64,000 bases of DNA from an uncultured Candidatus Saccharibacteria bacterium (lineage in GTDB: Bacteria > Patescibacteriota > Saccharimonadia > Saccharimonadales > Saccharimonadaceae): assembly GCA_927910745.1 (NCBI GenBank), contig CAKMNX010000028.1:11653-75652 (forward strand), in the 5' to 3' direction. Positions 22,300 through 44,649 of the stretch are shown here, in pieces (positions within the stretch are counted from its first letter, which is position 1; each line of letters opens with the position of its first letter). Below the pieces are notes generated by a model that saw nothing but the letters and a program-made list of their open reading frames with translations, had not been told where the DNA came from and ran no database searches. The translations under genes and the position numbers were made by a program.

Positions 22300-23516
22300 T
22301 TACTTAATCTGATTTGCCATATTCGAGATTGGCAACATCACCGAAGCAGCAATCAGCCCCACCATGCCACCCATGATGACGATCATGACGGGCTCGATGA
22401 TGGAGCTGATGCCATCGATCGCGACGTCCACTTCCTCCTCATAATAATCCGCCACCTTTACAAGCACGGTATCGGTCTGGCCAGTCTCTTCGCCAACTGA
22501 AAGCATTTGCGCCACGATGGGTGGGAAGAGTGGATTTTTTTCGATGATACTCGAGAGGTTGCGCCCATTTTTGACTTGCTCGGCAGCATCATTGAGGGCA
22601 TTTTCGTAGACTTTGTTGCCCACCGCCCGGGCAGTCACGCGGAGTGATTCGAGCACTGCTACCCCCGACCCCATCAACGCCGAGAACGTGCGAGCAAAGC
22701 GAGCAACGGCGATTTTGGTGATGATATCGTTGATTTTTGGTATCTTGAGAATGATGGTGTGGAGCCAGAGTTTGCCTGCTGGTGTCTTGATATAGCGGCG
22801 GAAGAAGTATATCCCCGCACCGAGCGCAGCAATGATAAAGATTCCATACTGGATGATAAATGCGCTCAGTCCAAGCATAAACTCGGTAATGGCGGGCAGC
22901 TTGGCGTCCGGTCCGCCGAGGCCGCGCACAATGTTGCCGATTTGTGGAATAACAAAGACCATCAAGCCAAAAAAGGCGGCAATAGTGATAACAATGAGCA
23001 CGGTAGGGTATGTCATGGCGCTTTTGATTTTTTGCGCATACTGGCGTTTTTTTCTTGTTGCATGGCTAGGCGTTTGAGGATGTCATCGAGAATACCAGCC
23101 GCTTCGCCCGCACGTACCATGTTAATAAAAACGGTATTAAAGGTCTCTGGGTGCTTTTCGAGTGCGTCGGCGAGTGCCATACCGCCCTCGACATCGCGCA
23201 GCAAGTCGCCCGTCACCATTTGGAGGGCTTTGCTGCTGGTATGGTCGTGCAGTGAGCCCATAGCGCGTAGCAGCGGCACACCAGCCGACACCATGGCACT
23301 GAGCTGGCGGGTAAACATCACCAAGTCTTCACTCTTGACCTTGTTGCTACCAAAGAGAGCAAAGCTGGTGCGCTTTGGCTTGACCTCTTCAGCACTAATT
23401 GGTCGCAGGCCTTGACGGCTCAGGCTGGCTAGGGCACTGGCACGATCGGGGGCGTCGATCGTTCCATTGATGGAGTCGTTTTTGTTCGTGATGGCGATGT
23501 AGCGAAATTGTGGCAT
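22300..23516 (-). pseudogene. pilC: type IV pilus inner-membrane platform protein PilC (GspF family), split by a -1 frameshift in an A6 (T6 on plus) tract at 23028-23033
   Basis: Two GspF-domain halves are in adjacent frames. The N half reads ...MRKKSKAP*. Adding one A restores ...RKKIKSAMTYPTVLIV..., the canonical junction. Confidence 0.75.
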
Positions 23517-23517
23517 G

Positions 23518-25298
23518 TTATTCCTTTGTGACGCGGAGCACTTCTTCTACAGTGGTGTTGCCGCGGATTGCTTTTATTAATCCATCGGTGAGCATGGTGG
23601 TCATCCCCTCGGCGACGGCTTGGTCTTGGATTTCGTTGCTGGTATTGCCGCCGATAATCATCTTTTGGATTTCGCGCGAAGTGCCGAGGACTTCGTAGAT
23701 ACCTACCCGGCCTTTGAAGCCGGTGTGATTACACTCATCGCAGCCATTTGGGTTTGGTTGCCAGAGGGTAGCGATGGTCGTGTCTGTCGTGCCCCAGGGT
23801 GTTTCACCACCGACCTTTTGGACGATAGCCTGGGCCTCAAGCTGATGGATGTAATAGAAATTTTGGCCCGGTGCAAGGTGAAAGAGGCGAGTGATCTCTG
23901 CAACCTCTGTTTGGTCGGGCACGTAACTCTGGCGGCAGTTCATACAGAGGCGACGCACCAGGCGCTGGCCTACCACGGCCTTAACGGTACTGGCGATAAG
24001 GAAGGGCTCGATCCCCATATCAAGCAGGCGTGGCAAACAAGTGGCGGCGTTATTGGTGTGGAGTGTACTAAATACCAAGTGGCCCGTTAGGGCAGCCTGG
24101 ACGCCAAGGTTAGCTGTCTCGCCGTCGCGGATCTCACCCACCATAATAATGTTTGGGTCTTGACGCAGCAGAGCGCGCAAACCACTGGCGAAAGTCATGC
24201 CAGCCTTGCTATTGGTTTGGGTTTGGTTGACGCCGGGGATCTTATACTCCACGGGGTCCTCAATAGTTGAGATATTGACCTCGGGCGTGTTAAGCATCGA
24301 CAGGACGGAGAAGAGCGAGGTAGACTTGCCACTCCCGGTCGGCCCGTCACGAGGATCATCCCATTGGGCTCGGTCAGTGCTTGATTGATAACAGCCAGCG
24401 AATGGCCCCAGTAGCCGAGCTGTTCGAGCGTCACTGCTTGGTTCGATTCGTCGAGGATACGCATCACCACCTTCTCACCATCAGCGATGGGTAGCGTGCT
24501 AACACGCAGGGCATACTGCTTGCCTGCGACTTTGATCTTAAAGCGACCGTCTTGCGGTACGCGGCGTTCGTCTATCTTAAGGTTGGAGAGGATCTTAATG
24601 CGGCTTATGAGCGCACCGAGCACATTCTTAGGTAGGCGGTTTACTTCCTTAAGGACGCCATCAATCCGGTAGCGCACCTGCACGAATTGCTCGCGTGGCT
24701 CGATGTGGATATCGCTGGCGTTGCTGCGGATGGCATACTCTAGTAACAGATTAACCGTCTGGGCGATTGGTGAGTCTTCTGCTACCTCTGCTTCGGTCAC
24801 CTTTTGGTTAGAGCCATCATCCTCACGCTGGATGTCGATCACCTCCTTGAGTTCCTGCGTCACATCGCCGCGGTATCCCTCAAGACACTCTAAGATGTTA
24901 CTGCGCGGCGCAATGTAGACACGGGTGTTGGTGCCAATTTCCTTCTCGATAAAGTTGACGGCTTGCACATCGTCTGGGTCGTCCATCGCGAGGTGGATGA
25001 GTCCATCAGGGTCGATCTTGAAGATGACAGCATTATACTGGCGGGCGATTCGCTCGGGGATGCGCATGAGGATATCAGAAGGGATATCGCGCGGATCGGG
25101 CTCGATGTAGGGGATGTCGGCGTAGGTGGCATAGAGCTTGGTGAGGGTACGCTCATCGATGAGGTTGTTTTGCAAGACGATATCTTGCAGGCGCAAATTA
25201 GATGACGCAGCCTCACTCACCAGTGGCTGGAGCTGCTGGCTGGTGGCAGCGCCACTGCGTTCGAGGAGTTTGACGATAGTAGAATCAGATATATGCAT
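23518..25298 (-). pseudogene. pilB: type IV pilus extension ATPase PilB (GspE family), with a 1-nt deletion inside the Walker A codons at about 24341
   Basis: The N half ends ...[13 protein letters not shown]... in the wrong frame. Restoring one C gives [38 protein letters not shown], which joins the C half (23518-24297) in frame. Confidence 0.8.
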
Positions 25299-25398
25299 AG
25301 TACTTACGCTTAATTGTAGCTCATTATGCTTATGCTGGCTAGAGGATAGCGCAATATTCGTGCTAGCAGAGGTGAGGCTGTGCTATACTAGAGCCAGT

Positions 25399-25857
25399 AT
25401 GCGTGTTATCTGTCAATCACTTGCTGATACGTTGCAGCTTGGCCAGCGCCTCGGCCAGGCGTTGCGTGGTGGCGAGGTGGTTGTGCTGGTGGGGGATATT
25501 GGCGCGGGCAAGACAACGCTCGTCAAAGGAATCGCGCGCGGCCTTGCCATTACTGATGATATCCAGAGCCCGACCTTTACGATTAGTCGGTTGTATCATG
25601 GGCGCGATGATATCCAGCTTGCGCATTATGATTTTTATCGTTTGGGCGATGCAGGGGTAATGCAGCTTGAATTGGCTGAGGCGATTGCTGAGCCCCGCAC
25701 AGTGACTATCATCGAGTGGGCTCAGGCTGTAGCGGATGTCGTCCCACCCGATCACCTGACAATCACCATTACCGCACAGAGCGAGACGGTCCGCCAGCTA
25801 GATATTGAGGCTGATGGCACCGTGTCGACCCAGCTTCTCCAGGAGGTTTCGGCATGA
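25399..25857 (+). CDS. tsaE: tRNA t6A37 biosynthesis protein TsaE (YjeE ATPase)
   Basis: LVGDIGAGKTTLVKGIARGL P-loop, and FTISRLYH...HYDFYRL. Confidence 0.8.
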   Translation: MRVICQSLADTLQLGQRLGQALRGGEVVVLVGDIGAGKTTLVKGIARGLAITDDIQSPTFTISRLYHGRDDIQLAHYDFYRLGDAGVMQLELAEAIAEPRTVTIIEWAQAVADVVPPDHLTITITAQSETVRQLDIEADGTVSTQLLQEVSA

Positions 25858-26243
25858 TTATTTTGTGGAATAGCGCGGGGATGGTCGTGGAGCTAACATT
25901 GGTAGATGACACTGGTACTCAGACGAGCTATGAGTGGCCAGCTGGCCGCACCCTGGCGCGTGATATGCTGGCTTATCTGCGTGATCGCATGGCCGAGCAT
26001 GGCAAGACACTGGCGGATATGACTGGCATTGGGGTGCGGCCTGGGCCGGGGAGCTTTACGGGGCTGCGGATTGGCCTAACGGTGCTCAATACACTCGCAC
26101 ACGAGCAGCACATCCCGATCGTTGCTGCGACGGGTGATGATTGGCGTACTGCCTGCCTTAGGCGGCTGGCGCATGGCGAGGATGATAGCATTGTCTTGCC
26201 CCAGTACGGCGCAGCTGCACATATCACACAGCCAAAAAAGTAG
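25854..26243 (+). CDS. tsaB: TsaB/YeaZ-like protein (short form, 129 aa)
   Basis: GPGSFTGLRIGLTV motif. Overlaps the tsaE stop. Lacks the C-terminal half of canonical TsaB. Confidence 0.6.
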   Translation: MIILWNSAGMVVELTLVDDTGTQTSYEWPAGRTLARDMLAYLRDRMAEHGKTLADMTGIGVRPGPGSFTGLRIGLTVLNTLAHEQHIPIVAATGDDWRTACLRRLAHGEDDSIVLPQYGAAAHITQPKK

Positions 26244-26437
26244 CTAGTGCAAAGCATAAGGGTAATAAATCGTTACCTCTGTAAATAGACAGACATCGAT
26301 ATTGCCAGTTGCGCAAATTAGCCAAAACGCGATACAATATACTAGTCTGTAGATAGTTTTAATGTTTGATAACACCGGTGTGGGCTGACGCAAGTCTGAT
26401 GTAATAAGAACAACACATATCCGGAGAAAGGAATACC

Positions 26438-27925
26438 ATGATAGAAGTACTCTTCGCGGCGATTGGCGTGGCGCTTGGTTTTGGTGGTAAGTACGCCTAC
26501 GATCGCCAGCAAACCGCCAATGGCCAGCGGGCAATCGACAAAGAATTGGCTCAGGCCAAGCAGCAAGCAGGTGATATCGTCCTCAAAGCCAAGGACGAGG
26601 CACTGCGGATCGAGAATGAGCGCCGCCGCGCGATGCAAAAGACGGAGAATCGTTTGCTCGAGCGCGAGGCAAGCCTCGATCGCAAACTCGACGAGCTTGA
26701 TCGCCGCAGTGAGAAGCTCCGCAAGAGTGAGACAGAGGTCGACGAGCTGAAGAATGAGATCCGCGAGATTCGGGGCCGGCAGCAGGCTAAGCTCGAGAAA
26801 ATCGCTGGCCTCACCAAGCAAGACGCCGCCAGCAAGCTGATGCACATGACCGAGCGTGATATCCGCCAAGACCTGACTGGCTTGGTGGATAAATTACAGC
26901 GCGAAGCGATGGACGATGCCGAGGAGAAGGCTCAGATGATCCTCGTGACAGCAATGGAGCGCATGAGTAGCGAAGTGACGGCCGAGCGCACAGTGACTGC
27001 TATTAAGTTGCCCGACGACGATATGAAGGGTCGCATCATTGGCAAAGAAGGGCGCAATATCCAGGCTCTGCAGCGAGCCACTGGTGTTGATATCTTGGTG
27101 GATGACACGCCAGGGATGATCGTCCTCAGTAGCTTTGATCCAGTGCGGCGCCAAGTAGCACGCCTGAGTCTTGAGATGTTAATGAAGGACGGGCGGATCC
27201 ACCCTGGTCGCATCGAGGAGGTCGTGGCCAAGGCAAATAAGCAAATTGACAAAGAAGTCGTGCGGGCTGGTGAAGATGCGGCGCGTGAAATTGGCGTAGC
27301 TGGTATTCCAAAGGAGCTGCTCCACCTTGTGGGTGAGCTGAAGTTCCGGACGAGCTACGGCCAAAACGTCTTGAAGCACAGTACTGAGATGGCCCAGATT
27401 GCGGGGTTGATTGCGGCAGAGATTGGGGCAGATGTACGCACTGTGAAGATCGCTACACTGCTCCACGACATGGGCAAGGCGGTGACACACAAGATGGAAG
27501 GCAAGCACCACCATATTGGGGCGGAGCTAGCTCGCAAGGCGGGCTTGAGCGAGGCAATTTGCCACGCCATTGAGGCCCATCACGACGATATCGAGGCCAC
27601 GACCCCCGAGGCGATCGTTGTGCGAGTATGCGATGCAGCCAGTGCTGCTCGGCCTGGCGCGCGCAACATGAGCGCCGAGAACTTCGTTGAGCGCATGCGC
27701 GACCTCGAGAATGTTGCCACTAGCTTCCGCGGTATCGACAAAGCCTACGCAATTAGTGCTGGCCGCGAAGTACGCGTCATTGTTCGGCCAGAAGTAGTGG
27801 ATGATCTGAGTGCTATCAAGCTCGCGCGAGATATTGCTACCAAGATTGAGAGTACCATGCAATACCCAGGTACAATCAAGGTCAATGTGATCCGCGAGAC
27901 ACGGGCGATCGAGTTCGCCAAATAG
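26438..27925 (+). CDS. rny: ribonuclease Y
   Basis: N-terminal TM helix, coiled coil, KH domain (GRIIGKEGRNIQALQRATGVDILVDD) and HD domain (LLHDMGKA...HH...D). Confidence 0.9.
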   Translation: MIEVLFAAIGVALGFGGKYAYDRQQTANGQRAIDKELAQAKQQAGDIVLKAKDEALRIENERRRAMQKTENRLLEREASLDRKLDELDRRSEKLRKSETEVDELKNEIREIRGRQQAKLEKIAGLTKQDAASKLMHMTERDIRQDLTGLVDKLQREAMDDAEEKAQMILVTAMERMSSEVTAERTVTAIKLPDDDMKGRIIGKEGRNIQALQRATGVDILVDDTPGMIVLSSFDPVRRQVARLSLEMLMKDGRIHPGRIEEVVAKANKQIDKEVVRAGEDAAREIGVAGIPKELLHLVGELKFRTSYGQNVLKHSTEMAQIAGLIAAEIGADVRTVKIATLLHDMGKAVTHKMEGKHHHIGAELARKAGLSEAICHAIEAHHDDIEATTPEAIVVRVCDAASAARPGARNMSAENFVERMRDLENVATSFRGIDKAYAISAGREVRVIVRPEVVDDLSAIKLARDIATKIESTMQYPGTIKVNVIRETRAIEFAK

Positions 27926-28500
27926 GGGCGGATGTATCTATCTCCTGTAAATGATAAACTGGTCAAGCAAATTGGCCGGTTTTTTGCCGTGTGGGTGTGT
28001 AGTTCGAAGCGTGAATGCGCACATGAGCTCAAGTATATCCCCATTTCGTGACGTTGTGATGGCAATGAGATATGCATTTTTTAAATCGCCTGAGAGTTAA
28101 TTATCCTTCAGCTCCAGGCTTGACCGTCAGCTTAGTAGGTGCTTATACGCTTCTTGCATGAATGGCAGGAGTGTGAGTAGATGCAAAAAAGTGATAGCCT
28201 TAAGTCTATAAACTCAACACCACAAAAGGGCTGGTGTGGACGAGACGCCCCCATTCTATAGTTGAGATAGGATATAATGAGAAGCTTTTATTCTGTGACA
28301 AGCGGCCAAGAAGGAAGAAGAGAGGAGAAATGACTTTTGGAGTCCGCAAAAATATAGGATAGCACATAAGACCAAGATGACTGCAAAGGCAAAAAGAGTT
28401 GCCGCCCGAATAAGATCATTAATAGGGGAGGTTATCGTGTGAGCGATATAGGAATTTGCTTTATTTAAGAATGATCTTGTAGCGTGCAAGAACACCGATG

Positions 28501-29139
28501 CTACGATGCAACCTCACCCTGCTTCTCGGCAACGATGACGACTCGGCCAGTTTTGGCGCCACCTAAGTCGCAGCTGTAGAGCGTGAGGCGGGCGTCTTCT
28601 GTTGGGGCTTCGATCTCAACGCTGGTTGGCTTGACATCAAATTTCTTGGTGATTTTGTAGTTGTAGCGTTTGCCTTGGTAGTCGGCGAGAATTTGGTCGC
28701 CTAGGGCGAGCTTGTCGATATGAAAGAATGGTGATTTTTCTACTGTACCGCCAGGCGTTGGCTGGATACTAAAGCGGTGGGCTGCCACGACGAAGTTGCC
28801 GCCCTTCTCAGGGTTGCCGTGGTCGGGGTAGCGCCACCATGCACCACGATCGAGGGCGAGTTTGCCATTAGTGCCGTACGGGATATTAACACCGATTTTG
28901 GGGATGATAATACGATTGTCTTTGGCTTCAGGCTTGGTGAGTGTTGCTACAGTGATTGGCTTGGTAAAGTGCGGTGCAATGATTGGTGAAGTAGTGAGCA
29001 GGAGTAGATACCCTCCCACTAACAAAAAGAGGACTGCGATAGTACCGAATATCCAGTTTGGTATCGAAATGCGCGGCATGCGCATACGCGAACGACGTGG
29101 TGTAGATGGCTGTCGTTTTGCTTTATTCATTGCTAGCAT
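28501..29139 (-). CDS. sortase (class E/F-like transpeptidase)
   Basis: N-terminal TM anchor, catalytic His (VAAHR), TLYSC cysteine motif, and a conserved Arg downstream. Confidence 0.75.
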   Translation of the reverse strand: MLAMNKAKRQPSTPRRSRMRMPRISIPNWIFGTIAVLFLLVGGYLLLLTTSPIIAPHFTKPITVATLTKPEAKDNRIIIPKIGVNIPYGTNGKLALDRGAWWRYPDHGNPEKGGNFVVAAHRFSIQPTPGGTVEKSPFFHIDKLALGDQILADYQGKRYNYKITKKFDVKPTSVEIEAPTEDARLTLYSCDLGGAKTGRVVIVAEKQGEVAS

Positions 29140-29418
29140 AATAACTCCTCATCTCTGTCTATTATACGGCACGAGCAGCAGCACGCCAATAGCATGACCG
29201 GCATGGTATTGGCAGATGGGCTCCATTAGGTAGCTCTACTCTAGAGTACAGTGGATAGAAAACTCTTGTATTTCATCCATGGTTTTATTCGATAGAGTGT
29301 ATAGATCAATCACTAATCTAACTCTAGTGTTGATAGTTAAATAATGGTATCGCTTATAGCGATACCAAGAAATAACTCGCAAGCAGAGAAGCCAGCATTG
29401 AAAAGGCTAGTGTGGAGG

Positions 29419-29460
29419 CGTGGTCTAAAAAGCCACCCACTCAAAGTAAGAGTGGGTGGC
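29419..29460 (-). terminator. rho-independent terminator of eno
   Basis: Perfect 10-bp inverted repeat gccacccact/agtgggtggc. On the minus strand the hairpin is followed by TTTTT. Confidence 0.6.
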
Positions 29461-29489
29461 ATAGTAGTGCCGTGTGGCGAGGTAGGCTA

Positions 29490-30770
29490 CTACTGCTTGA
29501 ATGGCTGCGCAAGCGTGAGACTCTCGTCTGCTTCGGTAATGCGGAGTAGCTCGTTGTACTTCGCCACGCGGTCGGTGCGCGAGAGCGAGCCAGTCTTGAT
29601 CTGCCCACAGCCCAGGCCAACTGCCAAGTGGCTGATTGTGGTATCCTCAGTCTCGCCAGAGCGGTGACTCATCACGGTGCGCCAGCCAGCGTTTTGGGCA
29701 AGTTGCACGGCTTGGATTGTCTCGCTGAGTGAGCCGATTTGGTTGGGCTTGACGAGGAGTGCGTTCGCCGCGTCTTGGTCAATCGCTTGCTGGATGAGGC
29801 TTGTATTCGTGACAAGTAGGTCATCGCCCACTAGCTGGACGCGGTCGCCGAGGCGCTGGCGGAGCTGCTGCCAGCCAGCCCAGTCACCCTCGGCCAGGCC
29901 ATCTTCGATACTGACAATTGGGAATTCGTCGACAAGGGCAGCCAGCCAGTCGATCATCTCACTACTGGTCAGGCTCTTGCCTTCACACTTCAGCTCATAC
30001 CGGCCATCATGGTAGAACTCACTCGAGGCAGCGTCCATTGCAAAGACGACATCTGTGCCAACGGTGTAGCCAGCATTGGTAATCGCTTCGCTGAGCAAGG
30101 CGAGTGGCTCGCGGTTGCCCTGGCGGACGCGTGGCGCATAGCCACCTTCGTCGCCAACAGTGGTGGGGTAATCGTGTGCTTTGAGGACTTTAGCAAGAGC
30201 GTGGAAGATTTCGGTGCCCATGCGGAGCGTGTCTGCAAAGGTTGTCGCACCCTTGCAGATGATCATAAACTCTTGGATATCGGTCGCAAAGGCGGCGTGC
30301 GCACCACCGTTGAGAACATTCATCATTGGCAGGGGAAGACTTGGTGTGCTGTCAGTTTGCTCGGCAATGTAGCGCCAGAGTGGTTGCTGCTTGGCATGAG
30401 CAACAGCCTTGGCAGTAGCCAGGCTAACACTGAGGATGGCATTAGCACCGAGCTTAGACTTGTTATCTGTTCCATCAAGGGCAAGCATTGCATTATCAAT
30501 CGCTTGCTGGTCGCTCGCATCGTGACCCACCAGTGCAGGAGCGATAACGTCGTTAACGTGGGCAACTGCCTGGCTCACCCCTTTGCCAGTCCACTGATTG
30601 CCACCATCGCGTAGCTCTAGTGCTTCGCCCGCACCGGTACTTGCTCCGCTCGGGACAGCTGCTCGGCCTAGCGTGCCATCAGCAAGGATGACGTCCGCTT
30701 CGACGGTGGGGTTGCCGCGGCTGTCTAAAATTTGTCGTGCTTTTATGGTTTGGATAGAGTAGTTGTTCAT
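29490..30770 (-). CDS. eno: enolase (phosphopyruvate hydratase)
   Basis: [27 protein letters not shown]...SHRSGETED. The ORF-table N-terminal extension was rejected. Confidence 0.95.
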
Positions 30771-31009
30771 ATCTTCTAGTATACCATCGAATGGAAGGCG
30801 ATCGCTATTACCGTTGAAATAGCATGAATCAACTGCGAAAATTTTCATGCAAGACAAGGATATTGACAAAAGGTCATTTTGTAGATTCAAGCATTGTATT
30901 TGCTGATACACATGGTACAATATAATTACGGCAACGGTTAATGAAGCGGAGGGTGGCAGTAACCCTGCGTTCTTCGTTTCGCACCTACACAGTAAGGAGG
31001 GCTATTCCC

Positions 31010-31390
31010 ATGACATTCAAAAAAGTAGGTATCCTTAGCGTATTGGCAGTTGGCTCAATGGCGGCGGGATCTTTGCTGTTTAATACAGCACCAGCGTCGG
31101 CAGAGAGTTTCGGGCCGACCGCCAATGACAACGGTACGTCCGTTGTCCAATACTACGATGGGACGAAACTGTTTTGCGTTTCTGATGCAAACTACCCCGA
31201 CGGCACGCCTGGCACGACAGCCTTTACGGTTGCGCCAACCCAAGGTAATGGTCCCAGTTATGGCCGAATCCTTGGCGCTGGCGAGACTGGCTGTGTCAGT
31301 CTTGAGACAGCACCGGAGGGAGCAGTATATCGCTACTGGCTGTTGTCTCGCACCGATGGATCGGTGTACCAAGGCGATTTCGTTCGCTAA
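31010..31390 (+). CDS. small secreted protein (signal peptide)
   Basis: RBS aaggaggg precedes the ATG. Signal peptide MTFKKVGILSVLAVGSMAAG...ASA is followed by a 100-aa Cys-containing domain. Confidence 0.5.
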   Translation: MTFKKVGILSVLAVGSMAAGSLLFNTAPASAESFGPTANDNGTSVVQYYDGTKLFCVSDANYPDGTPGTTAFTVAPTQGNGPSYGRILGAGETGCVSLETAPEGAVYRYWLLSRTDGSVYQGDFVR

Positions 31391-31452
31391 ATAACTACTC
31401 ACTGAAATACCCGATATACCCAAAAACGAAAATGAAAACCCCCGTTGTCGCG

Positions 31453-31475
31453 GCCCCCTCCTGAGGGGGCTTTTG
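31453..31475 (+). terminator. rho-independent terminator
   Basis: GC-rich hairpin gccccctc..gagggggc followed by tttt. Confidence 0.6.
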
Positions 31476-31544
31476 GGACCTCAAATACGGAATGATTGGT
31501 AGACATATATAGCACTCGCGCCAATAGTGCCGTATAATGGAGGC

Positions 31545-32195
31545 ATGACAGGAACACTTATTATCAGCCGGCATGGCGAAAGCGAATGGAATTTACAAGG
31601 TAAATGGACAGGCTGGACGGACGTAAGCCTTACCGAAAAAGGTAAGAGCGATACGCGTCAACTCGGCGAGTTCTTGCGTGGTCGCACCATCGATGCGGTA
31701 TATACTTCGGCACTCAAACGGACACATGAGACACTTGATGCGTTGATGGAAGGTGCAGACAACCCAATCCGCTCAAGTGATGCCACGGTGGTGCACGCGT
31801 CTGAGCTTAACGAGCGTGACTATGGCGACCTAACTGGCAAGAACAAGTGGGAAGTCAAAGAAGAGATTGGCGAGAAGGCCTTTAATGGTATTCGGCGCGG
31901 CTGGGATTATCCTGTACCCGGTGGTGAGACGCTCAAGGATGTGTATGAGCGTTCGATCCCGTATTTTGAGTCAGAGATCTTACCACGGCTCCAGGCGGGC
32001 GAGACCGTATTGATTGTGGCGCATGGCAACACGATTCGTGCACTTATGAAGTACCTTGATCGAATCCCGGAGGAAGATATGGGTACAGTAGAGATGCCCT
32101 TTGGTCAATTACTTGTTTACACATTTGAGCCTGGCATGGCATATCCTACTGCGTGTGATGTGCTTAAAGCAGATATTGTACCGCCCAAGGCGTAA
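31545..32195 (+). CDS. gpmA: 2,3-bisphosphoglycerate-dependent phosphoglycerate mutase
   Basis: LIISRHGESEWN catalytic His motif, plus AHGNTIRAL. Confidence 0.85.
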   Translation: MTGTLIISRHGESEWNLQGKWTGWTDVSLTEKGKSDTRQLGEFLRGRTIDAVYTSALKRTHETLDALMEGADNPIRSSDATVVHASELNERDYGDLTGKNKWEVKEEIGEKAFNGIRRGWDYPVPGGETLKDVYERSIPYFESEILPRLQAGETVLIVAHGNTIRALMKYLDRIPEEDMGTVEMPFGQLLVYTFEPGMAYPTACDVLKADIVPPKA

Positions 32196-32359: not shown

Positions 32360-32376
32360 GGCAAAGTCTTGTATCG

Positions 32377-32576: not shown

Positions 32577-32592
32577 TATTTGTGAATTGTTT

Positions 32593-32896: not shown

Positions 32897-33286
32897 ATGG
32901 AATTTAGCTTTAGTTTAAAAATCAAAGCAGGAAAAGAAGATGTGTGGGAATACTATGCAAATATCGAAAAATGGTATGATTGGGAAGAGGATCTCAAAAA
33001 CATTACATTAAAAGATGGATTTAAGACTGGCTCATATGGAACGATGGAACTTGAGGGAATGCCTCCTATGGAATATCAACTTACTCGTGTGAAGCCTTTT
33101 GAAGAATTTTGGGATAAAACAGAAACTCCGTTTGGTGATGTTCTTTTCGGTCATCAGATTGTTGATAACAATGACGGAAGCGTTAATATAAAACATACGG
33201 TAGCTCTCGATAGTGAGGATAAGCAGCATTTGGAGTTTTTTAAGTCAGGTTTTTTCAGATGTTCCTCAGTCTATTGTTTATTCTAA
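32897..33286 (+). CDS. SRPBCC (Bet v1/polyketide-cyclase-like) family protein
   Basis: RBS aaaggagaaag precedes the ATG. 129-aa AT-rich ORF. The fold assignment is tentative. Confidence 0.4.
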   Translation: MEFSFSLKIKAGKEDVWEYYANIEKWYDWEEDLKNITLKDGFKTGSYGTMELEGMPPMEYQLTRVKPFEEFWDKTETPFGDVLFGHQIVDNNDGSVNIKHTVALDSEDKQHLEFFKSGFFRCSSVYCLF

Positions 33287-33372
33287 AAAGTTGTTTAGAA
33301 CGATAAGGTGGTTGCTGTTTGTTTACGTCAAAGTATAAAGATAATTCAGAAAAATCAACAGGATTGCTGTTT

Positions 33373-34529: not shown

Positions 34530-34541
34530 TGCATTTGAGTG

Positions 34542-34781
34542 CTATCCTTGCGGCGGGAAGGGATCCTTCTTGGGCGGGACGGTATCGGCATCGCGATACT
34601 GGGCGGTGCCGTCGGCGCGCTGGATCCTGAGCTCACCACCACCGTGTTGGCGCATGTAGCGCCTGGTTTGGTCGATGACTTCCTCCTGAGTCGTGCCCAC
34701 AAAGTGGACGCGGCCAGTGCCGTCGGCGACTGCTTGGTAGCCTTTGAGTTTGTTACCGCTAATCGTAAAATTTTGTGCCAT
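34542..34781 (-). CDS. DUF2188 family protein
   Basis: RBS GGAG precedes the ATG. ...YQAVADGTGRVHFVGTTQEEVIDQTRRY...ELRIQRADG matches the DUF2188 consensus. Confidence 0.55.
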   Translation of the reverse strand: MAQNFTISGNKLKGYQAVADGTGRVHFVGTTQEEVIDQTRRYMRQHGGGELRIQRADGTAQYRDADTVPPKKDPFPPQG

Positions 34782-35099
34782 GGAGTACTCCTCGTGCGGC
34801 TTTAACGATATTGGTATGCAAGGTGCCAACCCTGCCTCCTTCTAGCCTAATACAAGATTGCTGATGAGGCAAATTGGTGCTACGAGAGAATAACGAATTG
34901 AAGTTATTTAAAGTAGGAAAATAATGACTTGATATATCATGATTAGGATTAATGGTGATATATGAGTGCCTCTATGTAGCAGAAGTGTAGCATATAACAC
35001 TAGTGGCTCATACTGATAGGTAAAATCGCTATGACATATATGCGATACGGCCAAAGTGTGCTATAAATATAAGCATAAGAGTATTTCGGAGGGGAAATA

Positions 35100-37067
35100 A
35101 TGAAACGATGGGGATTGAGCGTCGTGCTGCTATGCGGTGCACTCTATGGGCTCGCGATAGCTCCGCCAGTGCGGGCGAATACGTCGCTGTGTGGTACAAA
35201 TGATCAGCTGTTCAGAGCGGTGCGTCGGCCACTAGCGACTGACTCAGCACCAGCAGCGCGTGCGATGGCATGGCTCAAACAGATGATGGAGCCAAAGCAT
35301 AGCCCAGGTGATGGTAGTACCATCACGCCAGCACAAGCCTATGGCTTTGACTACCAAGCAAAGGTGAGCGGGCGCTTTACGCTTGCGCACCCACGACAAA
35401 CAGAAAGTGCGACACCGCTCACGGTTCCTAATACTGCGCATGCCGCCGAAGGTTACCGCGGCATAGTAAAAGGAACAGCACCAACTGGGGCTAATCCACG
35501 TGAAGTGCGGGCCTATCTCTACAGTGATGCTGAATATGAGCAAGCGACCGTTGCGCCAGCAGTGGTACAGCCAGATGGCACATGGACGCTCGATCTCTCA
35601 CCTGTCAATCCGGCATTTGCGGGGTCATGGCACTTCCGGTTATATGACAAAGTGACGGGGCAGCAGATTGGCGAGAGCTGGCCGCGACCTGTTACGTATA
35701 AGAATCTGGAGGTGCAGCTCTACGCGGTATCTGATAAAGAATATCTCCAAGCCACGCAGCCAGCCCAGGCAGATAATACCTTTAGTTTCGATGCAGTAGG
35801 TAAGGGGCATAAATTAATTCGCCTCTATGATACAGCAACTAAAACTATCATTGCTGAGTATTTCAAGCCAGAGCTGGTGGGGCTGATTCGCTCGTATGAG
35901 TATGCGCCAGGCCAAGATGGCTATGGTACACCGCGTGAGTCGTACAGCTATGTGTATGATCAGTCGCTGGCGCTACTCGTGGCGATTGGTGCGGATGATC
36001 GAACAATGGCGGATAAGCTCGTGCATGGCCTAAGCGCAATCCAAGTCAAGATAGGTGAGCAGAAGGGGGCGTTTCCGGCAAGTGCACATCAGCTTGATTA
36101 TACAGTAATCCAGCAGCCGATTTATTATACTGGTGGTATCGCCTTCGTGCAGTATGCGCTCATCCGCTATATGGAAAAATATGGTGACCAGCAAGGGGTG
36201 CGCCAGATGATTCTCGATACCTTCCGTTGGCTTGAGACAATGAAGACGACGACTGGCGATGCTGCCGGGTTATTCCGTGGCGGGGTGAAGATTGATAATG
36301 GCGTCAAGAAGGATATTGCATGGCATGCCACCGAGCACAACACTGACATGTGGCATGTGTACGAGCGAGCAGCCCGCGTGCTGGGTGATAAGCAGTATGC
36401 CCAGAAGGCAGACGAACTTGCCAAAGTGACAGTAGCGAAACTATGGAATACCTCTGAAGGGCGCTTTAACCAAGGGTATAACGACAGTAGTAAGGCGCTC
36501 GATACAACAAGCTGGGGTGCGATTTTCCTCAATGCGATTGGTGAATACGACAAAGCTAAGCAAGCACTCGCTCATACTGCCATCTACAAAACAACCGATG
36601 GTGCGGCAAAAGGCTATACACCGTATTTGACAGGTAATTACGTGCCAACCGTATGGTTTGAAGGGACGTATGGTGTAGCACAGGCGCATACTATCGCTGG
36701 GGACACGGCCACAGCACGGGCGATCTTGGCAGACACGTACCCAGCGCAGCGGCCCAATGGTGCATGGCAGTACGCGTCTAAGGCCGATCTGCTAAATGAA
36801 CTAACTAATGCAAACTCAGTGGCATCGACAGCGTGGTATATGTTGGCGGCTAGCTACCCAGAAGCGATTTGGTCGGAGTGCCGCGCGGCACTGGCGACAA
36901 ATCCACTCGATCCAAATAAACCCAACCAGCCCACTCAGCTAGCCAAGCCAAGCCAATTCCACGGCCTCTTAGCCGATACCGGCATATCGCTCTGGCAGTT
37001 TGTTCTTGTGACAGCGGCGTTGCTTGCTGGTGGGGTGCTACTGGCGCACTATGTGCGACGCGCATAA
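35100..37067 (+). CDS. secreted cell-wall-anchored protein with LAXTG-type sorting signal (LADTG), possible glycoside-hydrolase-like alpha/alpha barrel
   Basis: RBS ggagggg and a signal peptide. The C-terminus reads LADTG, then a hydrophobic helix, then RRA. That is a class E sortase-type sorting signal. Confidence 0.55.
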   Translation: MKRWGLSVVLLCGALYGLAIAPPVRANTSLCGTNDQLFRAVRRPLATDSAPAARAMAWLKQMMEPKHSPGDGSTITPAQAYGFDYQAKVSGRFTLAHPRQTESATPLTVPNTAHAAEGYRGIVKGTAPTGANPREVRAYLYSDAEYEQATVAPAVVQPDGTWTLDLSPVNPAFAGSWHFRLYDKVTGQQIGESWPRPVTYKNLEVQLYAVSDKEYLQATQPAQADNTFSFDAVGKGHKLIRLYDTATKTIIAEYFKPELVGLIRSYEYAPGQDGYGTPRESYSYVYDQSLALLVAIGADDRTMADKLVHGLSAIQVKIGEQKGAFPASAHQLDYTVIQQPIYYTGGIAFVQYALIRYMEKYGDQQGVRQMILDTFRWLETMKTTTGDAAGLFRGGVKIDNGVKKDIAWHATEHNTDMWHVYERAARVLGDKQYAQKADELAKVTVAKLWNTSEGRFNQGYNDSSKALDTTSWGAIFLNAIGEYDKAKQALAHTAIYKTTDGAAKGYTPYLTGNYVPTVWFEGTYGVAQAHTIAGDTATARAILADTYPAQRPNGAWQYASKADLLNELTNANSVASTAWYMLAASYPEAIWSECRAALATNPLDPNKPNQPTQLAKPSQFHGLLADTGISLWQFVLVTAALLAGGVLLAHYVRRA

Positions 37068-37073
37068 CAGTCA

Positions 37074-37847
37074 CTACTTCAACCCACGAAAAGTACTTGA
37101 TTTGACGTTATCATACATCGCGTTGTCTTGAAGGAGTTTCTTCATCGTTTTCACATCGTCGGGCTGTCCTGCCACGAGATATTGAGCCTTGTTGCCATGT
37201 CTATCAATCGCCTGCTTGAAGCGTTCTTGGCTTTGAGAAAGGCTAGCACTGGTCTCATAAGTCATATTGGCTGTTTTGTTTGCTAGCTCTGAGAGTTCCT
37301 TGTCAAAGACCGTTACCCCCTTGTCTAGGTGATAGAGCATGATAGGACGTTTACCGGCCCACTGCCTGACAATTGGTCGCATTGCTGAGATACCGACATC
37401 AGACGCGAAGCAAACCAGCGGCTCGTTACCGTCTGTAACTGACAAAGAAGATTCCAGCCAACTCATCTTGACCTGACTACCTGCTGGTAGGCTCGTCAAA
37501 GCTTTTTTATAAGGACTACCGCTATTGTGGGTTAGGATAATAATTTCATTATCCTCAGGACTAGAGGCGATACTCAGCCAACGACTTGTCTGTTCATCCT
37601 TATGATCATTCTTTTCACCACCAGATGCCGTACTGGGTAGCGTGATCTTGGCATAAGAGCCCGCCTTCCATGTCATAGTATCAGGCTTTGCCAGGCGAAT
37701 GACATGAAGGTCTCCACTAGGGTTTTCGATGGATTTGACCGATAACGTTTGGCCTCTCCCTAAGTAGGCGATGATGCCCCAAGTAATAATGCCTATAACC
37801 ACAAGAATAGCTATAACGATGATAACCATTTTTTTACCCCTTTTCAT
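37074..37847 (-). CDS. membrane-anchored FNR-like FAD/NAD(P)-binding oxidoreductase
   Basis: N-terminal TM helix. RWLSIASSP resembles the RxYS FAD-binding motif of ferredoxin-NADP reductase-like proteins. Confidence 0.4.
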   Translation of the reverse strand: MKRGKKMVIIVIAILVVIGIITWGIIAYLGRGQTLSVKSIENPSGDLHVIRLAKPDTMTWKAGSYAKITLPSTASGGEKNDHKDEQTSRWLSIASSPEDNEIIILTHNSGSPYKKALTSLPAGSQVKMSWLESSLSVTDGNEPLVCFASDVGISAMRPIVRQWAGKRPIMLYHLDKGVTVFDKELSELANKTANMTYETSASLSQSQERFKQAIDRHGNKAQYLVAGQPDDVKTMKKLLQDNAMYDNVKSSTFRGLK

Positions 37848-38427
37848 TATGTAAAACACCCCTCGCAAAGGTAGTGGCAAGTACTTCTAGCGTCCTACCG
37901 ATACCCGGAAAATCGCCTTCGGTAATATGTATATCCATGTAGTAAAACAAATTATAAACCTGTAAAATATCCTGAATTTTTTCCTCTGAATATCCTTCTG
38001 CCACCATACGATTAGTAAAGGTTTCGACCAAAAACTGATGAAAGGTATTGGTGGCTTTACCTTTGCCCGAAGAATAGTGGCTGCGCAGCGTGCGAGAGAT
38101 GGCTGGGTTATGCCATTCCGCCAGGATTTTATTGGATGAAACCAGGCTACGTGACTGTTCAAAAATCTGCCTCACAAGTTCAACCAAGTCCTGCTGCCAA
38201 TCGATATCATCCATCATCGCCTGGCGAACGCGGCTATTCTCCTCAACGTACACATCCAGGAAGATAGCTTCCTTGCTGTCGTAGTAGTTGTAAAAAGAAC
38301 CAACTGCTACGCCAGCTTGTTTAGCGATTTCTGAGATCCCGGCCTCTTTATAACCCTTTTTTGAGAAGACATCATAGGCGGCCGTTTTTAATGCTTGCTT
38401 CTTGTCCAATGCTCGTAACTCTCTCAT
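37834..38427 (-). CDS. TetR/AcrR family transcriptional regulator
   Basis: HTH region ...AAYDVFSKKGYKEAGISEIAKQAGVAVGSFYNYYDSKEAIF. Confidence 0.75.
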   Translation of the reverse strand: MRELRALDKKQALKTAAYDVFSKKGYKEAGISEIAKQAGVAVGSFYNYYDSKEAIFLDVYVEENSRVRQAMMDDIDWQQDLVELVRQIFEQSRSLVSSNKILAEWHNPAISRTLRSHYSSGKGKATNTFHQFLVETFTNRMVAEGYSEEKIQDILQVYNLFYYMDIHITEGDFPGIGRTLEVLATTFARGVLHNEKG

Positions 38428-38559
38428 TAATAATATTCTGAATGAATAAATTTTTATATTCATTCATATTATATGAAAACAACAAGAAGGCTGTCAATAG
38501 AGGGATCTGCTTGATTATTCTTTTCGATTGTCAACCCGATTGACGAGGCTATCTAATTG

Positions 38560-39189
38560 TCATTGGCTCTGTACCTTATCCACCAGCTTCGTTAGCTTCA
38601 CGCCATCGTACATCCAGTGGTCGGCGCCGCGGTATGCGCCGGAGTTGTTGACTTCGCCGCGCTGGGTGTAGATCAGGCGGGTGAGGGCAGATAGACGCCA
38701 GGTTTTGCCGCCGTAGGATGCTTCGCGTGGGCCGGCTACAACGGCGGTGATAGCTGGGTCTTTGATGAAGCAGATGGTTGCGCCCTTTTCGATACCTTTT
38801 TTGTAAAAGCTAAAGCGCTGGTCTTGCTGGTGCGCGGTGGTAACGGCCTCGAACGAATCGGCTTTGCTGGTGGATTGAGCTGGCTTGGGGTAAATCTGCG
38901 TGCCATCAAGGGCGAGCAGCAGCCGCTGGATAAGATATTCATCGAGCGCAAAGAATTCGCTCCGGCCAATGCGGTGTTTGCTAAAGACTTCGTGCAGAAG
39001 CTGCTCCTTTTTGTGGTAATTATCTACCTCAATAGCAACCAGCCGCTGCAGCCCAGTAATATTAGAATAGCCGTTGGATTCGAGGTATTGCATACGCGCC
39101 TCGAAGCGGTCGGTGCTGGTCTTGCCAATCTTGACCAAGCCATCAATGGCACTGGTCATAACATAAATCACTCCGCGTGGCTCGGACAT
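38560..39189 (-). CDS. T5orf172 (GIY-YIG-like) + DUF4357 domain protein
   Basis: [20 protein letters not shown]...RMQYL is the T5orf172/MUG113 signature. It is followed by the conserved C-terminal domain usually paired with it near R-M loci. Confidence 0.5.
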
Positions 39190-39290
39190 GGTTTTATTGT
39201 AGCAGACTGTGGGGTGGGGGAACAACCGACGACGATAAGGTGCTCAAACCAGCCTCGTTAATCAGGCTTGCTTGCAGTATAATGAGGGGC

Positions 39291-40876
39291 ATGACAACAG
39301 GGGATAATCGTAAAGAACAAGAACGCAGCAAGCTTCACAATACTATTTGGAAGATTGCCAATGACCTGCGCGGATCAGTCGACGGCTGGGACTTTAAGTC
39401 GTATGTGCTAGGCTTCTTATTTTACCGGTTTATATCGGAAAATCTAGTCAATTATATTAATGCTGAAGAGCGTAAAACTGGTGTGGCTGATTTTAATTAT
39501 GCTGAACTGAGCGATGATCAGGCGGAGTTTGGTCGTGAGGATACAGTAAACGACAAAGGATTTTATATTTTACCAAGCGAGCTGTTTGAGAATGTCCGTA
39601 AGCGCGCCAAAAATGACGAAAATTTGAACGAAACACTCAGTAAAATATTCCGTAACATTGAGCAATCAGCCAAAGGTTTTGAGAGTGAGGATGATTTTCG
39701 CGGGTTGTTTGACGACTTGGACGTTAATAGCAATAAACTTGGTCCGACCGTCGCCAGGCGCAATGAGCGATTAGTGAAATTGATGAACGCCATTAGTGAA
39801 TTAGAGCTCGGTAAGTTTGAGGACAATACGATTGACGCTTTTGGCGACGCATATGAGTATCTGATGACCATGTATGCCGGTAATGCTGGCAAATCCGGAG
39901 GTGAGTTCTTCACGCCGCAAGAAGTGAGCGAACTTTTGGCAAAAATTACTGTTGTTGGCAAAACCTCGGTAAACAAAGTGTATGACCCGGCAGCAGGCTC
40001 CGGTTCATTGCTGCTAAAATTTGCGAAAGTCTTGGGCAAGGATAATGTCAGGCAAGGCTTTTACGGGCAAGAGATTAACATCACAACCTATAATCTTTGC
40101 CGTATCAACATGTTCCTGCATGACATTAATTATGAAAAATTTAACATTGCTCACGGCGATACGCTGAAGGATCCGAAGCACTGGGATGATGAGCCGTTTG
40201 ATGCGATTGTCTCAAATCCGCCATATAGTATCAATGGGACGGCGATAGCAACCCGATGCTCATTAACGATCCGCGCTTCAGCCCGGCTGGAGTATTGGCG
40301 CCGCGCAGTAAGGCTGATTTAGCATTCACAATGCATATGTTGAGCTGGCTCAGCGAGAGCGGTACGGCAGCGATTGTTGAATTTCCTGGTGCACTATATC
40401 GCGGTGGGGCTGAGGTAAAAATTCGCAAATACCTGGTAGATAGTAATTATGTTGATACCGTCATCCAATTGCCGCCAGATTTGTTCTTTGGTACGACAAT
40501 TAGCACCTGTATTCTTGTTTTGAAAAAGAGCAGGGCGATGAACGATATATTATTTATCGATGCCAGCGCTGAGTTTGTGCGAAAAGGCAATAAGAACAAG
40601 TTGAGCGAGGAAAATCGTCAGAAGATCCTGGACAGTTTCACTGATCGGCAAAATATCGACTACTTTGCGAAAGTTGCTACTTATGAAGATGTCGCCGCCA
40701 ATGACTACAACCTATCAGTTAGTTTGTATGTTGAGGCGGAAGATACACAAGAAGTAATTGATATCACTGAGCTCAATGCTGACATTGCAAAGATCGTAGC
40801 TCGCCAGTCGGAACTACGGACGGAAATTGACGCTATAGTTGCAGATCTCGAAAAGGATAATAATAGTGCAAGATAA
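39291..40876 (+). pseudogene. hsdM: type I R-M DNA methyltransferase subunit HsdM, interrupted by a 1-nt deletion at about 40233-40236
   Basis: HsdM N-terminal domain, AdoMet motif ([10 protein letters not shown]) and NPPYS motif. After NPPYS the frame fails. Inserting one base restores [23 protein letters not shown]..., which continues as ORF 40256-40876. Confidence 0.8.
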
Positions 40877-41213
40877 CGGTAATATCGTTGTATATGCTGA
40901 CGATAACGGCAAGCCGCAAGTTGATGTTCGGTTTCAGGATGAGACGGTTTGGCTGACGCAAGCGCAACTGGTTGAGTTATATCAGTCGAGTAAAGCTAAC
41001 GTTAGCGAGCATATAAAAAATATCTTTGACGAGGGTGAACTTGACCGCGCAGCAACTATCCGGAAATTCCGAACAGTTCGAACTGAGGGTGATCGTCAGG
41101 TAGAACGTGAATTAGAATACTATAATCTCGACACTTGCAAACTGAGTACCAAGCAGGCTAAAGAAAAAATGCTAGCTGGGTATCGTAAGTATAAGGCGAA
41201 AAAACTTGAGTAG
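40866..41213 (+). CDS. RhuM-family (COG3943) protein, N-terminal fragment only
   Basis: GTG start overlaps the hsdM stop. IVVYADDNGKPQVDVRFQDETVWLTQAQLVELYQSSKANVSEHIKNIFDEGEL matches the RhuM N-terminus. The ORF stops after 115 aa, so it is truncated. Confidence 0.55.
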   Translation: MQDNGNIVVYADDNGKPQVDVRFQDETVWLTQAQLVELYQSSKANVSEHIKNIFDEGELDRAATIRKFRTVRTEGDRQVERELEYYNLDTCKLSTKQAKEKMLAGYRKYKAKKLE

Positions 41214-41276
41214 CGTGGAAGAGGATTATCTGGAGAATATTAAGAAAACAGCTAAAAAGTTGAAAGGTAAAATAAA

Positions 41277-43507
41277 ATGAGTATTCAGAAAGTAAAAATT
41301 AATTTTGAGCATTGTTATGGCATTCATAAGCTATGCAGCAACTTTGACTTTTCTAAATCTAATATGCAGCTAATTTATGCTCCGAACGGCACTATGAAAA
41401 CGTCTTTTGCAAAAACTTTTAAGGATATGAGTGATCCTAGAGGAAAAACTAAACCTCACGATCAGCTCAATGAAACTTTGCAGCCGACTTGCAAAGTTAT
41501 GGTTGAAGACGACAGCGGAAGTGAGCGACAGATAACACCTGATGAAATTAAGGTCATTAAGTCTTACGATGAATCTGCGTTCAAGTCAGAAGAGGCCATC
41601 CTCACCCTACTAGCTAACAAAGAGATTCGCCAACAATATGTTGATATTTTTAAAGAATTAGACAATGAGAAAAAATCTGCATTAAGTCCCTTAAAAAAGA
41701 TCACTGGCAGTAGTAATTACGAGCAAGAGATAATTGGTGCTTTTTCTGATCCAGGAACCAAAAAACTTTCGATATTTGAAGTTTTGGCTACCATAGTAGA
41801 CGACGTAAAACAGTCAAATAGTACCTTTGATTTTGTTTATAATCATGTATTTGATCCTAAGGGGAAAGTGCGTGACTTTCTAGATGAAAATTATGACTTG
41901 TTGCAAAAATATAGTGAGAAATATAATGAACTGTTATCAAGCTCGCAATTCTTTTCAAACAACGGAGAGCGAGCTTTTGGTACGATTGAAGCAGGCGCTC
42001 TTCGTGATTCAATAAAAGGCGATGAATATTTCGAGTCGGGTCATAAACTCTCGTTAAAGATGAGACTATGGTTGACAGCGCCGATAAACTGTCTGAGATT
42101 ATCGATGATGAGATTAAAAAAGTTTTTGATAATCAAGAAATTAAAGATACTTTTGACAAGATTGACAAGAAGCTACAAGGAAACCAAGAGCTAAGAAATT
42201 TTAAAAAAGTTATAGAGAAAGATAAAACTCTGATTGCCAAACTGACTAATTATAATGAGTTTCGTAAGGAAGTTTGGTATAGCTTTCTAAAACAAGTCGA
42301 GCCTGGGGTCAGTGGTTTAGTTGAAAACTATAATACGAAAAAGCCAGATATTGAGACGATTGTGGCTGCGGCGAATGGCTCTAAGGGCTTGTGGCACGAT
42401 ACTGTAAAAGAGTTTATGACTCGATTTACAGGCTTACCTTTTTCTTTTGGTATTGAAAACATAGGTGATGCTATTTTAGGCAAAGATATGCCGACTATTA
42501 CATACCGTTACGGCAATAAATTAGTAGACCAAAGCGTGCTAACAAAAGACATTCTAAGTCAGGGAGAGCGACGTGCTTTCTATCTATTGAATGTAATATT
42601 TGACATAAAATCACGAGAAAAAGAAAATAAAGAAACTCTATTTATTATAGATGACATTGCCGACTCGTTTGACTATAAGAACAAGTACGCTATTATTCAG
42701 TACTTAAACGACTTAAACAAGAGCGAAAATTTCAAAAGCATTGTTTTAACTCATAATTTTGATTTTTACCGTACACTACAAGAGCGAATACTAGCAAGCG
42801 GTAAACGGGATTATTCGTTTATAGCAGAAAGAAATAATGACGAGATTAGATTATTGCCGGGCGGGAAGAAGGTGATTACCAACCCTTTTAATAAATGGCG
42901 TAATAAATGTAATAGGAAAGAAAAGCTACTTGTTGCCGCCATACCGTTCATACGCGAGCTATATAACTATCAAAAAGGGAATGAATCGCAAGAATATTTA
43001 TTGCTAACACACCTACTTCATGACAAAGAAGCTGACAGTCAAAATAAGATACCAGCTACCTATGATATAAAACTAAGAGATATTGAGTATGTCTTTGATG
43101 GTATGTTGAATGTGCAGTTTAAGTTTCCGAATAAGACTAAAAAAGTTATAGACATTATTTTTAGTGTTGCCGATCAGATCCAGCAAGATCCTCATGACGG
43201 CATAAGCCTAGAGAATAAGATAGTATTGGCTATGGCGACTCGACTCTTGGCAGAGCAAAAAATCCTTATTTATGTAGAGCGTCCGTCAAACATTAGCAAA
43301 AACCAATTCTGGGAATTATACAATGTGTTTCGGAATCAATTTGGAAGTGATGAAACTAAAAAAGGCATATTAGAGGTTCTAGAACAGGTCAATATCATCA
43401 CTCCGGCAAATATCCACATTAATTCATTTATGTACGAGCCAATTATTGACATTGGTATTGATGAGTTAGTTTGTCTATATGATCGAGTAAAGGCTTTGCA
43501 TGAGTAA
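41277..43507 (+). pseudogene. ABC/SMC-like P-loop ATPase (AAA_13/AAA_15-like) embedded in the R-M locus, with an apparent 1-nt frameshift at 42056-42058
   Basis: Walker A (IYAPNGTMKTSF), ABC signature (LSQGERRAF), Walker B (LFIIDDIADSFD) and H-loop (VLTHNF). Two overlapping ORFs are in adjacent frames. A4 in place of A3 would join them. Confidence 0.6.
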
Positions 43508-44649
43508 AATTGACGATTTGATTAAAGAGCTGTGCCCGGATGGGGTGAGGTTTGTTAGAGTTGGCGACGTGGCTGTAATAGGTACAGGCAGATCTGATAG
43601 AAAGGATGCCGTTGAAAATGGCCAATATCCATTTTATGTAAGATCAAAAGTAGTATCTCGAATAGATAGGTACTCATTTGATGAGGAAGCAATTATTATA
43701 CCTGGAGAAGGTGGAGTTGGTGATATATTTCATTATGCGAATGGAAAATATGACCTTCATCAGCGAGCTTATAGAATTGTATTCATAACCAATGAAGTGA
43801 ATACGAAATACGCTCTGTACTATTTTATGAGTCTCTTTAAGAGTTTTATAACCCGAAAAGCGGTGAATGCAACGGTTACATCCATAAGAAAACCAATGAT
43901 AGAGGATTTCCGCATCCCCGTTCCACCTCTTGAGGTTCAAAAAGAGATTGTGCGTGTGCTAGACTCGTTTACAGAGCTAGAAGCAGAGCTAGAAGCAGAG
44001 CTAGAAGCGAGAAAGAAGCAGTACGAATACTATCGTAATGACTTGTTGACATTTGACGATGATGTAATGTGGAGGTCGATGGGTGAGATATGTATTTTTC
44101 AAGGATAGAGTAGCGTCTGATGAGCTTACTGCAGATAATTATGTAGGTGTTGACAATCTTCTTAAAGACAAAAAAGGTAGGACGATATCAAGTTATGTGC
44201 CAGAGTCAGGAATCTGGACAAAATTTGTATCAGGGGATATTCTCATTGGAAACATAAGACCATATTTGCGTAAGATATGGTTGGCGGATATTGAAGGTGG
44301 CACAAATGGTGACGTCTTAGTGTTCCATATTTCAAAAGAATATACGAAAAGAATAACACCTAAATTTCTTTTTCATTGCTTAAGTTCAGAAAGGTTCTTT
44401 ATGTTTATGAATAACACCTCAAGGGGCGCAAAGATGCCTCGCGGAGATAAGAAAGCTATCTTAAACTTTATGATACCGATTCCATCACTATCCGTACAAC
44501 AGCAAACCGTCTCTATCCTTGACAAATTCGAAAAACTTACCAACGATATTTCTGTTGGTTTGCCGGCGGAGATTGAAGCCCGCCGCAAGCAATACGAGTA
44601 TTACCGCAATAAATTACTAACCTTCAAAGAGTTGGAGTGTTCAAAATGA
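43500..44649 (+). pseudogene. hsdS: type I R-M specificity subunit HsdS (two target-recognition domains), frames offset by 1 nt at the T5 run 44095-44099
   Basis: Each half carries a TRD plus a conserved helical spacer ending RKKQYEYYRN(D/K)LLTF. The first ORF already runs into the start of TRD2 (W...GEICIF) before it stops. This argues for one gene with a frameshift rather than two half-genes. Confidence 0.65.
43974..44009 (+). repeat. 3 x 12-bp perfect tandem repeat (gagctagaagca) encoding ELEA x3 in the hsdS central conserved spacer
   Basis: Read directly from the sequence. Confidence 0.9.

Follow-up and report, generated by a model that had tools for sequence, protein, structure and literature searches.

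Split pilus and restriction-modification genes in an oral Saccharibacteria contig are probably consensus errors of the assembly

Has a human-oral member of the Saccharibacteria (TM7) lost the function of a pilus and of a restriction system, or does its deposited sequence only make it appear so? This question is raised by a stretch of 64,000 nucleotides (nt) of contig CAKMNX010000028.1 (positions 11,653 to 75,652; referred to as the window), which is part of such a genome and has a GC content of about 52%. Five genes of a type IV pilus (T4P) locus and of a type I restriction-modification (R-M) operon are interrupted in it. An earlier note on this DNA described the interruptions as single-nucleotide frameshifts at short homopolymers, confined to these two modules, and considered either homopolymer errors of the assembly or genuine decay or phase-OFF states as the cause. 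The five genes are listed below with their window coordinates and strand.

22300-23516, - strand: pilC, platform protein of the putative T4P locus two (T4P-2), 405 amino acids (aa) when intact; split by the change of a T7 run to T6 at 23028-23033 (23034)
23518-25298, - strand: pilB, putative T4P-2 extension ATPase, 593 aa when intact; a change from G3 to G2 (24343) within the Walker A codons splits the gene
39291-40876, + strand: hsdM, 528 aa when intact; split right after NPPYS by a change from A3 to A2, leaving AA at 40233-40234
41277-43507, + strand: ATPase of the ABC/SMC type within the R-M operon (PDC-S46), 743 aa when intact; split by a change from A4 to A3 at 42056-42058
43500-44649, + strand: hsdS, 387 aa in relatives; split by two adjacent deletions, T6 to T5 at 44095-44099 and A3 to A2 at 44101-44102

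Each of these genes consists of two overlapping open reading frames (ORFs) in the window, and the break sites named in the earlier note were all correct. Pfam profiles were interrupted exactly at the junctions: T2SSE matched with positions 3-152 in one ORF and 149-370 in the other, N6_Mtase with 2-138 and 139-310, and T2SSF with 1-100 and then the remainder. The genes recA, ruvB, eno, rny, PBP1A and hsdR were intact, as had been noted, and had the same lengths as in relatives.

Orthologous genes in related genomes were compared, as the earlier note had proposed. The comparison set consisted of independent short-read metagenome contigs from the oral samples of other people, which were retrieved by exact-protein look-up and stem from HMP/JGI, MEGAHIT ("k141") and SPAdes ("NODE") pipelines. 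Contigs L016 and L017 cover 9.9-30.6 kb of the window, L011-L015 cover 31.3-53.5 kb and L024-L029 cover 49.0-64.0 kb, together about 9.8-64 kb. Outside recombinant blocks these contigs were about 99.9% identical to the window (L011: 99.87% over 17.8 kb with 3 mismatches). All five split genes were intact in the near-identical contigs that cover them (PilB 593 aa, PilC 405 aa, HsdM 528 aa, ABC ATPase 743 aa, HsdS 387 aa), as was HsdR with 1037 aa. Since every split gene is intact in near-identical contigs from other samples, the lesions are very probably consensus errors of the deposited assembly, which would be error-prone and probably based on long reads. We infer that they arose in sequencing or assembly and not in the cell.

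The kind of difference pointed in the same direction. Over 43,656 nt of near-identical alignment, 7 substitutions were opposed by 16 indel events, 14 of these with a length of 1-2 nt, so that indels were far above what the substitutions predict. This corresponds to about one indel event per 3 kb and an indel to substitution ratio of about 2:1. The ten isolated 1-nt events all changed the length of a run (A6 to 5, T7 to 6, G3 to 2, T5 to 6, T1 to 2, A3 to 2, A4 to 3, T6 to 5, A3 to 2 and T6 to 7). Of the sites that the earlier note had placed at short homopolymers, several (AA, GG, A3) are homopolymers in name only. At every lesion site the window was the sole deviant among up to 19 relatives of 90-99.9% identity, and L011-L017 and L024 were free of the lesions. 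The split fragments, together with a scrambled 129-aa protein described below, occur solely on the 117,070-bp NCBI/ENA source contig. Proteins that cluster with those of the window carry the names Candidatus Saccharimonas or Saccharibacteria.

One explanation to be weighed against this is that the strain has truly inactivated the T4P-2 machinery and the type I R-M/PDC-S46 island by slipped-strand 1-nt indels. Weak mismatch repair in the lineage could have led to this, or a laboratory co-culture in which neither module was needed. The lesions are truly present in the deposited sequence, and they resemble pseudogene decay in reduced or host-associated genomes in that frameshifted ORFs lie in accessory modules. 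Natural divergence, however, consists mostly of substitutions, and a ratio of 16 indels to 7 substitutions does not fit it. About 6-7 of the roughly 60 genes in the window are damaged, a rate which is untenable when extrapolated to a genome of about 1 Mb. We regard such a loss of function as unlikely, and the individual sites gave further reasons for this.

In the pilus locus, the run in pilC is a T6 on the + strand at 23028-23033, i.e., A6 on the coding strand. Ten of 12 relatives have T7 at this place and the other two (L002 and L007) have TCTTCTT. Repaired PilC differed from that of L016 in two residues, both inside a recombinant block. The version with the window-specific residues V187 and N195 was found intact (405 aa, P0170) in a Logan read-level assembly only, so an intact allele of the window strain itself exists there. 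A truncated PilC in L002 was rejected as an example of a natural frameshift, as it stems from an N-gap in the scaffold. In pilB the window has GG at 24341-24342 and L016 and L017 have GGG; repaired PilB was identical to PilB of L016 in 593 of 593 residues. A merging of two strain variants (ACAGGGCCG and ACGGGTCCG) into one consensus was considered for the pilB lesion and set aside: GGGCCC is what the nearest relatives have at this site, and a plain miscount from G3 to G2 therefore suffices. There were no substitutions at all in 22960-26514, and the 3.6 kb with pilB and the 5' half of pilC contained two indels and no substitution.

The R-M operon gave a similar picture. Repaired HsdM was identical to that of L011 in 528 of 528 residues, and the repaired ABC ATPase matched protein P0050 with 100% identity and coverage. 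The Logan protein P0054 also reads in frame through the lesion site of the ATPase. P0054 is called from Met51 (693 aa) instead of Met1, while all other assemblies have 743 aa; its Logan contig may have a different defect within codons 1-50, as might be expected from noisy reads of the source sample. P0170 and P0054 may both derive from the same sample as the source contig. For hsdS, the earlier assumption of a single 1-nt indel had to be corrected. The junction reads TTTTTTCAAAGG in relatives and TTTTTCAAGG in the window, which means that two adjacent 1-nt deletions (44100 and 44101) are present. Once repaired, the PilB, HsdM and ABC ATPase proteins showed no extra lesions, stops or amino acid changes compared to the intact versions. 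Decaying pseudogenes would be expected to look different: the window lacks accumulated substitutions, stops and larger deletions, and the repaired PilB, HsdM and ATPase are 100% identical to alleles that are functional and circulate in other hosts. The adjacent double deletion in hsdS also argues against genuine loss, and events at runs of 1-3 nt do not resemble the spectra of slippage.

A second difference in hsdS was of another kind. A 12-nt tandem repeat, CAGAGCTAGAAG, which encodes (ELEA)n and is located between the two target-recognition domains (43972-44007), is present in 3 perfect copies in the window and in 4 copies in L011-L014, and the reading frame is kept. In EcoR124I/II the spacer of the recognition site changes in length with the copy number of a comparable 4-aa repeat. 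Since the repeat number sets the spacer length there, the copy difference could be real specificity variation; it could also be a collapse of the repeat in the assembly.

The lesions were not confined to pilus and R-M genes. It was this supposed confinement that had made the pattern seem biological, and the premise was wrong, as four further places in the window were affected.

32897-33306, + strand: gene for a 135-aa SRPBCC/polyketide-cyclase-like protein; two 1-nt insertions, T5 to T6 at 33236-33241 and T to TT at 33274-33275
18996-19027, - strand: burst of indels (+2, +2, +1 and -2; net +3) in a PRC-barrel gene (18915-19556)
10140-10144 (10145), + strand: A5 run, A6 in 9 of 9 relatives; non-coding, just upstream of the start used in relatives for a 189-aa gene
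54031-54037, + strand: intergenic T7 run, T6 in L024

Owing to the two insertions, the SRPBCC-like protein has a different sequence over its last 20 or so residues, and the ORF of the window stops at 33286 after 129 aa. This 129-aa form was found on the source contig only, and the 135-aa form on 18 contigs. In the PRC-barrel gene, the burst turns the conserved KKPEQKATQPA (11 residues) into KNRAKRPPNQGS, and 19 of 19 relatives with 90-99% identity agree against the window. Besides the pilus and R-M genes, hits were thus scattered regardless of function over two other genes (SRPBCC-like and PRC-barrel), a 5' leader and an intergenic run, which speaks against the inactivation of two particular modules. 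Several lesions came in groups: the deletions at 44100 and 44101 are next to each other, the insertions at 33236 and 33274 are separated by 38 nt, and the burst at 18996-19027 comprises four events in 32 nt. Such an arrangement is hard to obtain from independent mutations and is typical of local consensus failure.

A few other candidates for frameshifts proved to be of a different nature. The overlapping ORF pairs 16524/17114, 37074/37834 and 2-550/430-1104 are separate genes in relatives. A split PBP1A in L018, which might have served as a natural example, is due to an N-gap in the scaffold.

In other bacteria, phase variation classically acts on type I R-M and pilus genes, which speaks for an alternative view of the homopolymers: they might be contingency tracts by which the pilus and R-M genes are turned ON and OFF, and this genome would have been sampled while every one of them was OFF. 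The loci do resemble phase-variable loci, e.g., those of Neisseria, Haemophilus or Helicobacter, as tract-length changes shift the frame in hsdM, hsdS and pilus genes, and all lesions are changes in tract length. Useful switching rates, however, need about 7-8 or more G/C or about 9 or more A/T residues, and the tracts in the ON state are just A3, A4, G3, T6+A3 and T7 (3-7 nt). These lengths are far below those required for switching, and phase variation was therefore not supported. In L002 and L007 other bases break up the pilC run, which is therefore not conserved as a tract. The OFF state was seen in none of the 5-12 other assemblies per site, which were all ON, and five or six simultaneous OFF states would be required. 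Unrelated genes and intergenic runs were affected equally. A genome caught in the OFF state at every site is scarcely credible, and phase variation as such is close to excluded. Programmed frameshifting or transcriptional slippage was rejected because the runs are too short and the relatives are in frame.

Of the two explanations that had been put forward, decay or phase-OFF states were thus not supported, given the shortness of the tracts, the interruption of the T7 run in some relatives and the lack of further lesions. Errors at homopolymers were supported by the intact relatives, the ratio of 16 to 7, the hits outside both modules and the match of the repaired proteins to intact ones. In assemblies based on long reads only, the dominant residual error is known to be homopolymer indels, which break up gene calls (PMC9262707; PMC8812927, PMC12007338). 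The window resembles such long-read (nanopore R9-type) or pyrosequencing errors in its 1-nt miscounts, mostly deletions, which occur about once per 3 kb in coding and non-coding DNA (PMC9262707, PMC8812927, PMC12007338), and also in that genes are split in two ORFs and repair gives full-length proteins. An error-prone, homopolymer-sensitive sequencing method (unpolished or low-coverage nanopore, or 454/Ion Torrent) combined with imperfect consensus calling would miscount short runs of identical bases by a single base, in most cases as a deletion, and would also yield a local burst of indels. The organism itself would then most likely have both modules intact: the T4P-2 machinery (pilB2/pilC2) and the type I R-M operon including the ABC ATPase.

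Some observations weigh against consensus errors. Half of the events affect very short runs of 1-3 nt, a length at which any single homopolymer error is rare, and in this the window differs from ordinary homopolymer consensus errors. It differs also in the multi-indel burst, which suggests low local coverage or a strain mixture and not pure miscalling of homopolymers; since this burst restores the frame (net +3), it could hint at selection. Five to six events fall in pilBC and hsdM-hsdS, compared to about 2.3 expected in a homopolymer-weighted model (p about 0.05, post hoc). The mild over-representation of the two modules would favor genuine loss, but the regions were chosen post hoc and clustering beyond chance is not convincing. 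Finally, the affected modules are dispensable in principle, as R-M is accessory and T4P-2 is non-essential, with pilB2 deletable in TM7x (PMC11623550); a real loss would therefore be viable. We consider it improbable, and slightly more so in its specific form, that a natural or laboratory-adapted oral strain switched off T4P-2, its thin pilus for binding the host, and the R-M/PDC-S46 island by a burst of slippage at short runs, e.g., due to defective repair. All other assemblies are intact, and the split genes are in all likelihood an issue of data quality and not of biology.

For users of the record this calls for caution. Taken at face value, the strain would be annotated without a functional T4P-2 pilus and without functional type I R-M, and spurious fragment proteins enter the databases; such fragments can already be found in the protein collection. 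Real lesions would define a natural pilus-less and restriction-less variant of an otherwise clonal, widespread human oral epibiont. This would be of moderate interest for the biology of epibiont and host, but the evidence points the opposite way.

The T4P locus lies at 14-25 kb and comprises pilB-pilC-pilM-pilN-pilO, followed by recX, recA and one pilin, without pilT. The gene order was alike in the window and in L001-L017 and agreed with the description of T4P locus two (PMC11623550). In Nanosynbacter lyticus TM7x this locus builds the thin T4P-2 pilus; it is non-essential and pilB2 can be deleted (PMC11623550). TM7x has the same gene content and order, including recX/recA and one nearby pilin and lacking pilT (PMC11623550), although the window belongs to another lineage of Saccharibacteria with about 52% GC. 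By synteny only, the pilus locus of the window can be assigned to the T4P-2 (thin pilus) type.

The R-M genes are located in a low-GC island at 39.3-47.8 kb (36-43% GC), which holds a canonical type I operon, hsdM-hsdS-hsdR. All three subunits, M, S and R, are encoded in this single operon, each with the domains typical of it. hsdM matched TIGR00497 with 760 bits, hsdR matched TIGR00348 with 547 bits and the PADLOC profile Specificity_I gave an E value of 7e-125; the Pfam domains HsdM_N, N6_Mtase and Methylase_S were matched as well. Between hsdM and hsdS sit two genes, a PDC-S05-like gene for 115 aa and the gene for the 743-aa ABC/SMC-type ATPase. The latter showed a full-length match to the PADLOC candidate PDC-S46 (E value 6e-220) and only a weak match to PrrC. 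The two undamaged genes of the operon are as follows.

40866-41213, + strand: intact 115-aa gene between hsdM and the ABC ATPase; matches the PADLOC candidate PDC-S05, with a RhuM-like N-terminus
44646-47759, + strand: hsdR, intact; 1037 aa, identical to L011 in 1037 of 1037 residues

The interpretation of ORF 40839-41213 as a relic of RhuM was ruled out, as it contains the intact 115-aa PDC-S05 gene, which is conserved in relatives. With a T5orf172/PDC-S57 gene upstream and the PDC-S05-like and PDC-S46 genes between hsdM and hsdS, the region 38560-47759 forms a composite defence island. Homologues of PDC-S46 with about 50% identity are widespread in other phyla of the candidate phyla radiation (CPR), namely Nomurabacteria, Magasanikbacteria and Paceibacteria.

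The near-identical contigs also revealed variation that is unlike the 1-nt events. Sharply bounded blocks of substitutions were present against L016, L012 and L024 at 12847-14098, 21515-22959, 26515-28567, 49924-50331 and 62187-62892. As an example of the contrast, 22 mismatches in 400 nt adjoin 12 kb with 2 mismatches. Such a block-wise mosaic is typical of homologous recombination between co-circulating strains. In-frame 3-nt indels against L011, L012 and L024 at 48991 (-GTT) and 49900 (+ATA), in or near a polysaccharide deacetylase gene, look like ordinary natural variation.

The glycerophosphodiester phosphodiesterase (GDPD) gene encodes 336 aa in the window (about 57311-58321) and in L025, and is split into 44 and 220 aa in the JGI contig L024 (8105-9099). 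The sole difference near this split is one substitution (window position 57618), and the split is possibly a real nonsense or start-site variant of that sample. The gene of an LTD-domain surface protein (3966-5873) differs in length among relatives (569-598 aa), and its product carries a C-terminal array of at least 7 copies of the Cys repeat C(K/P)xGxxRNPATxRC(R/K).

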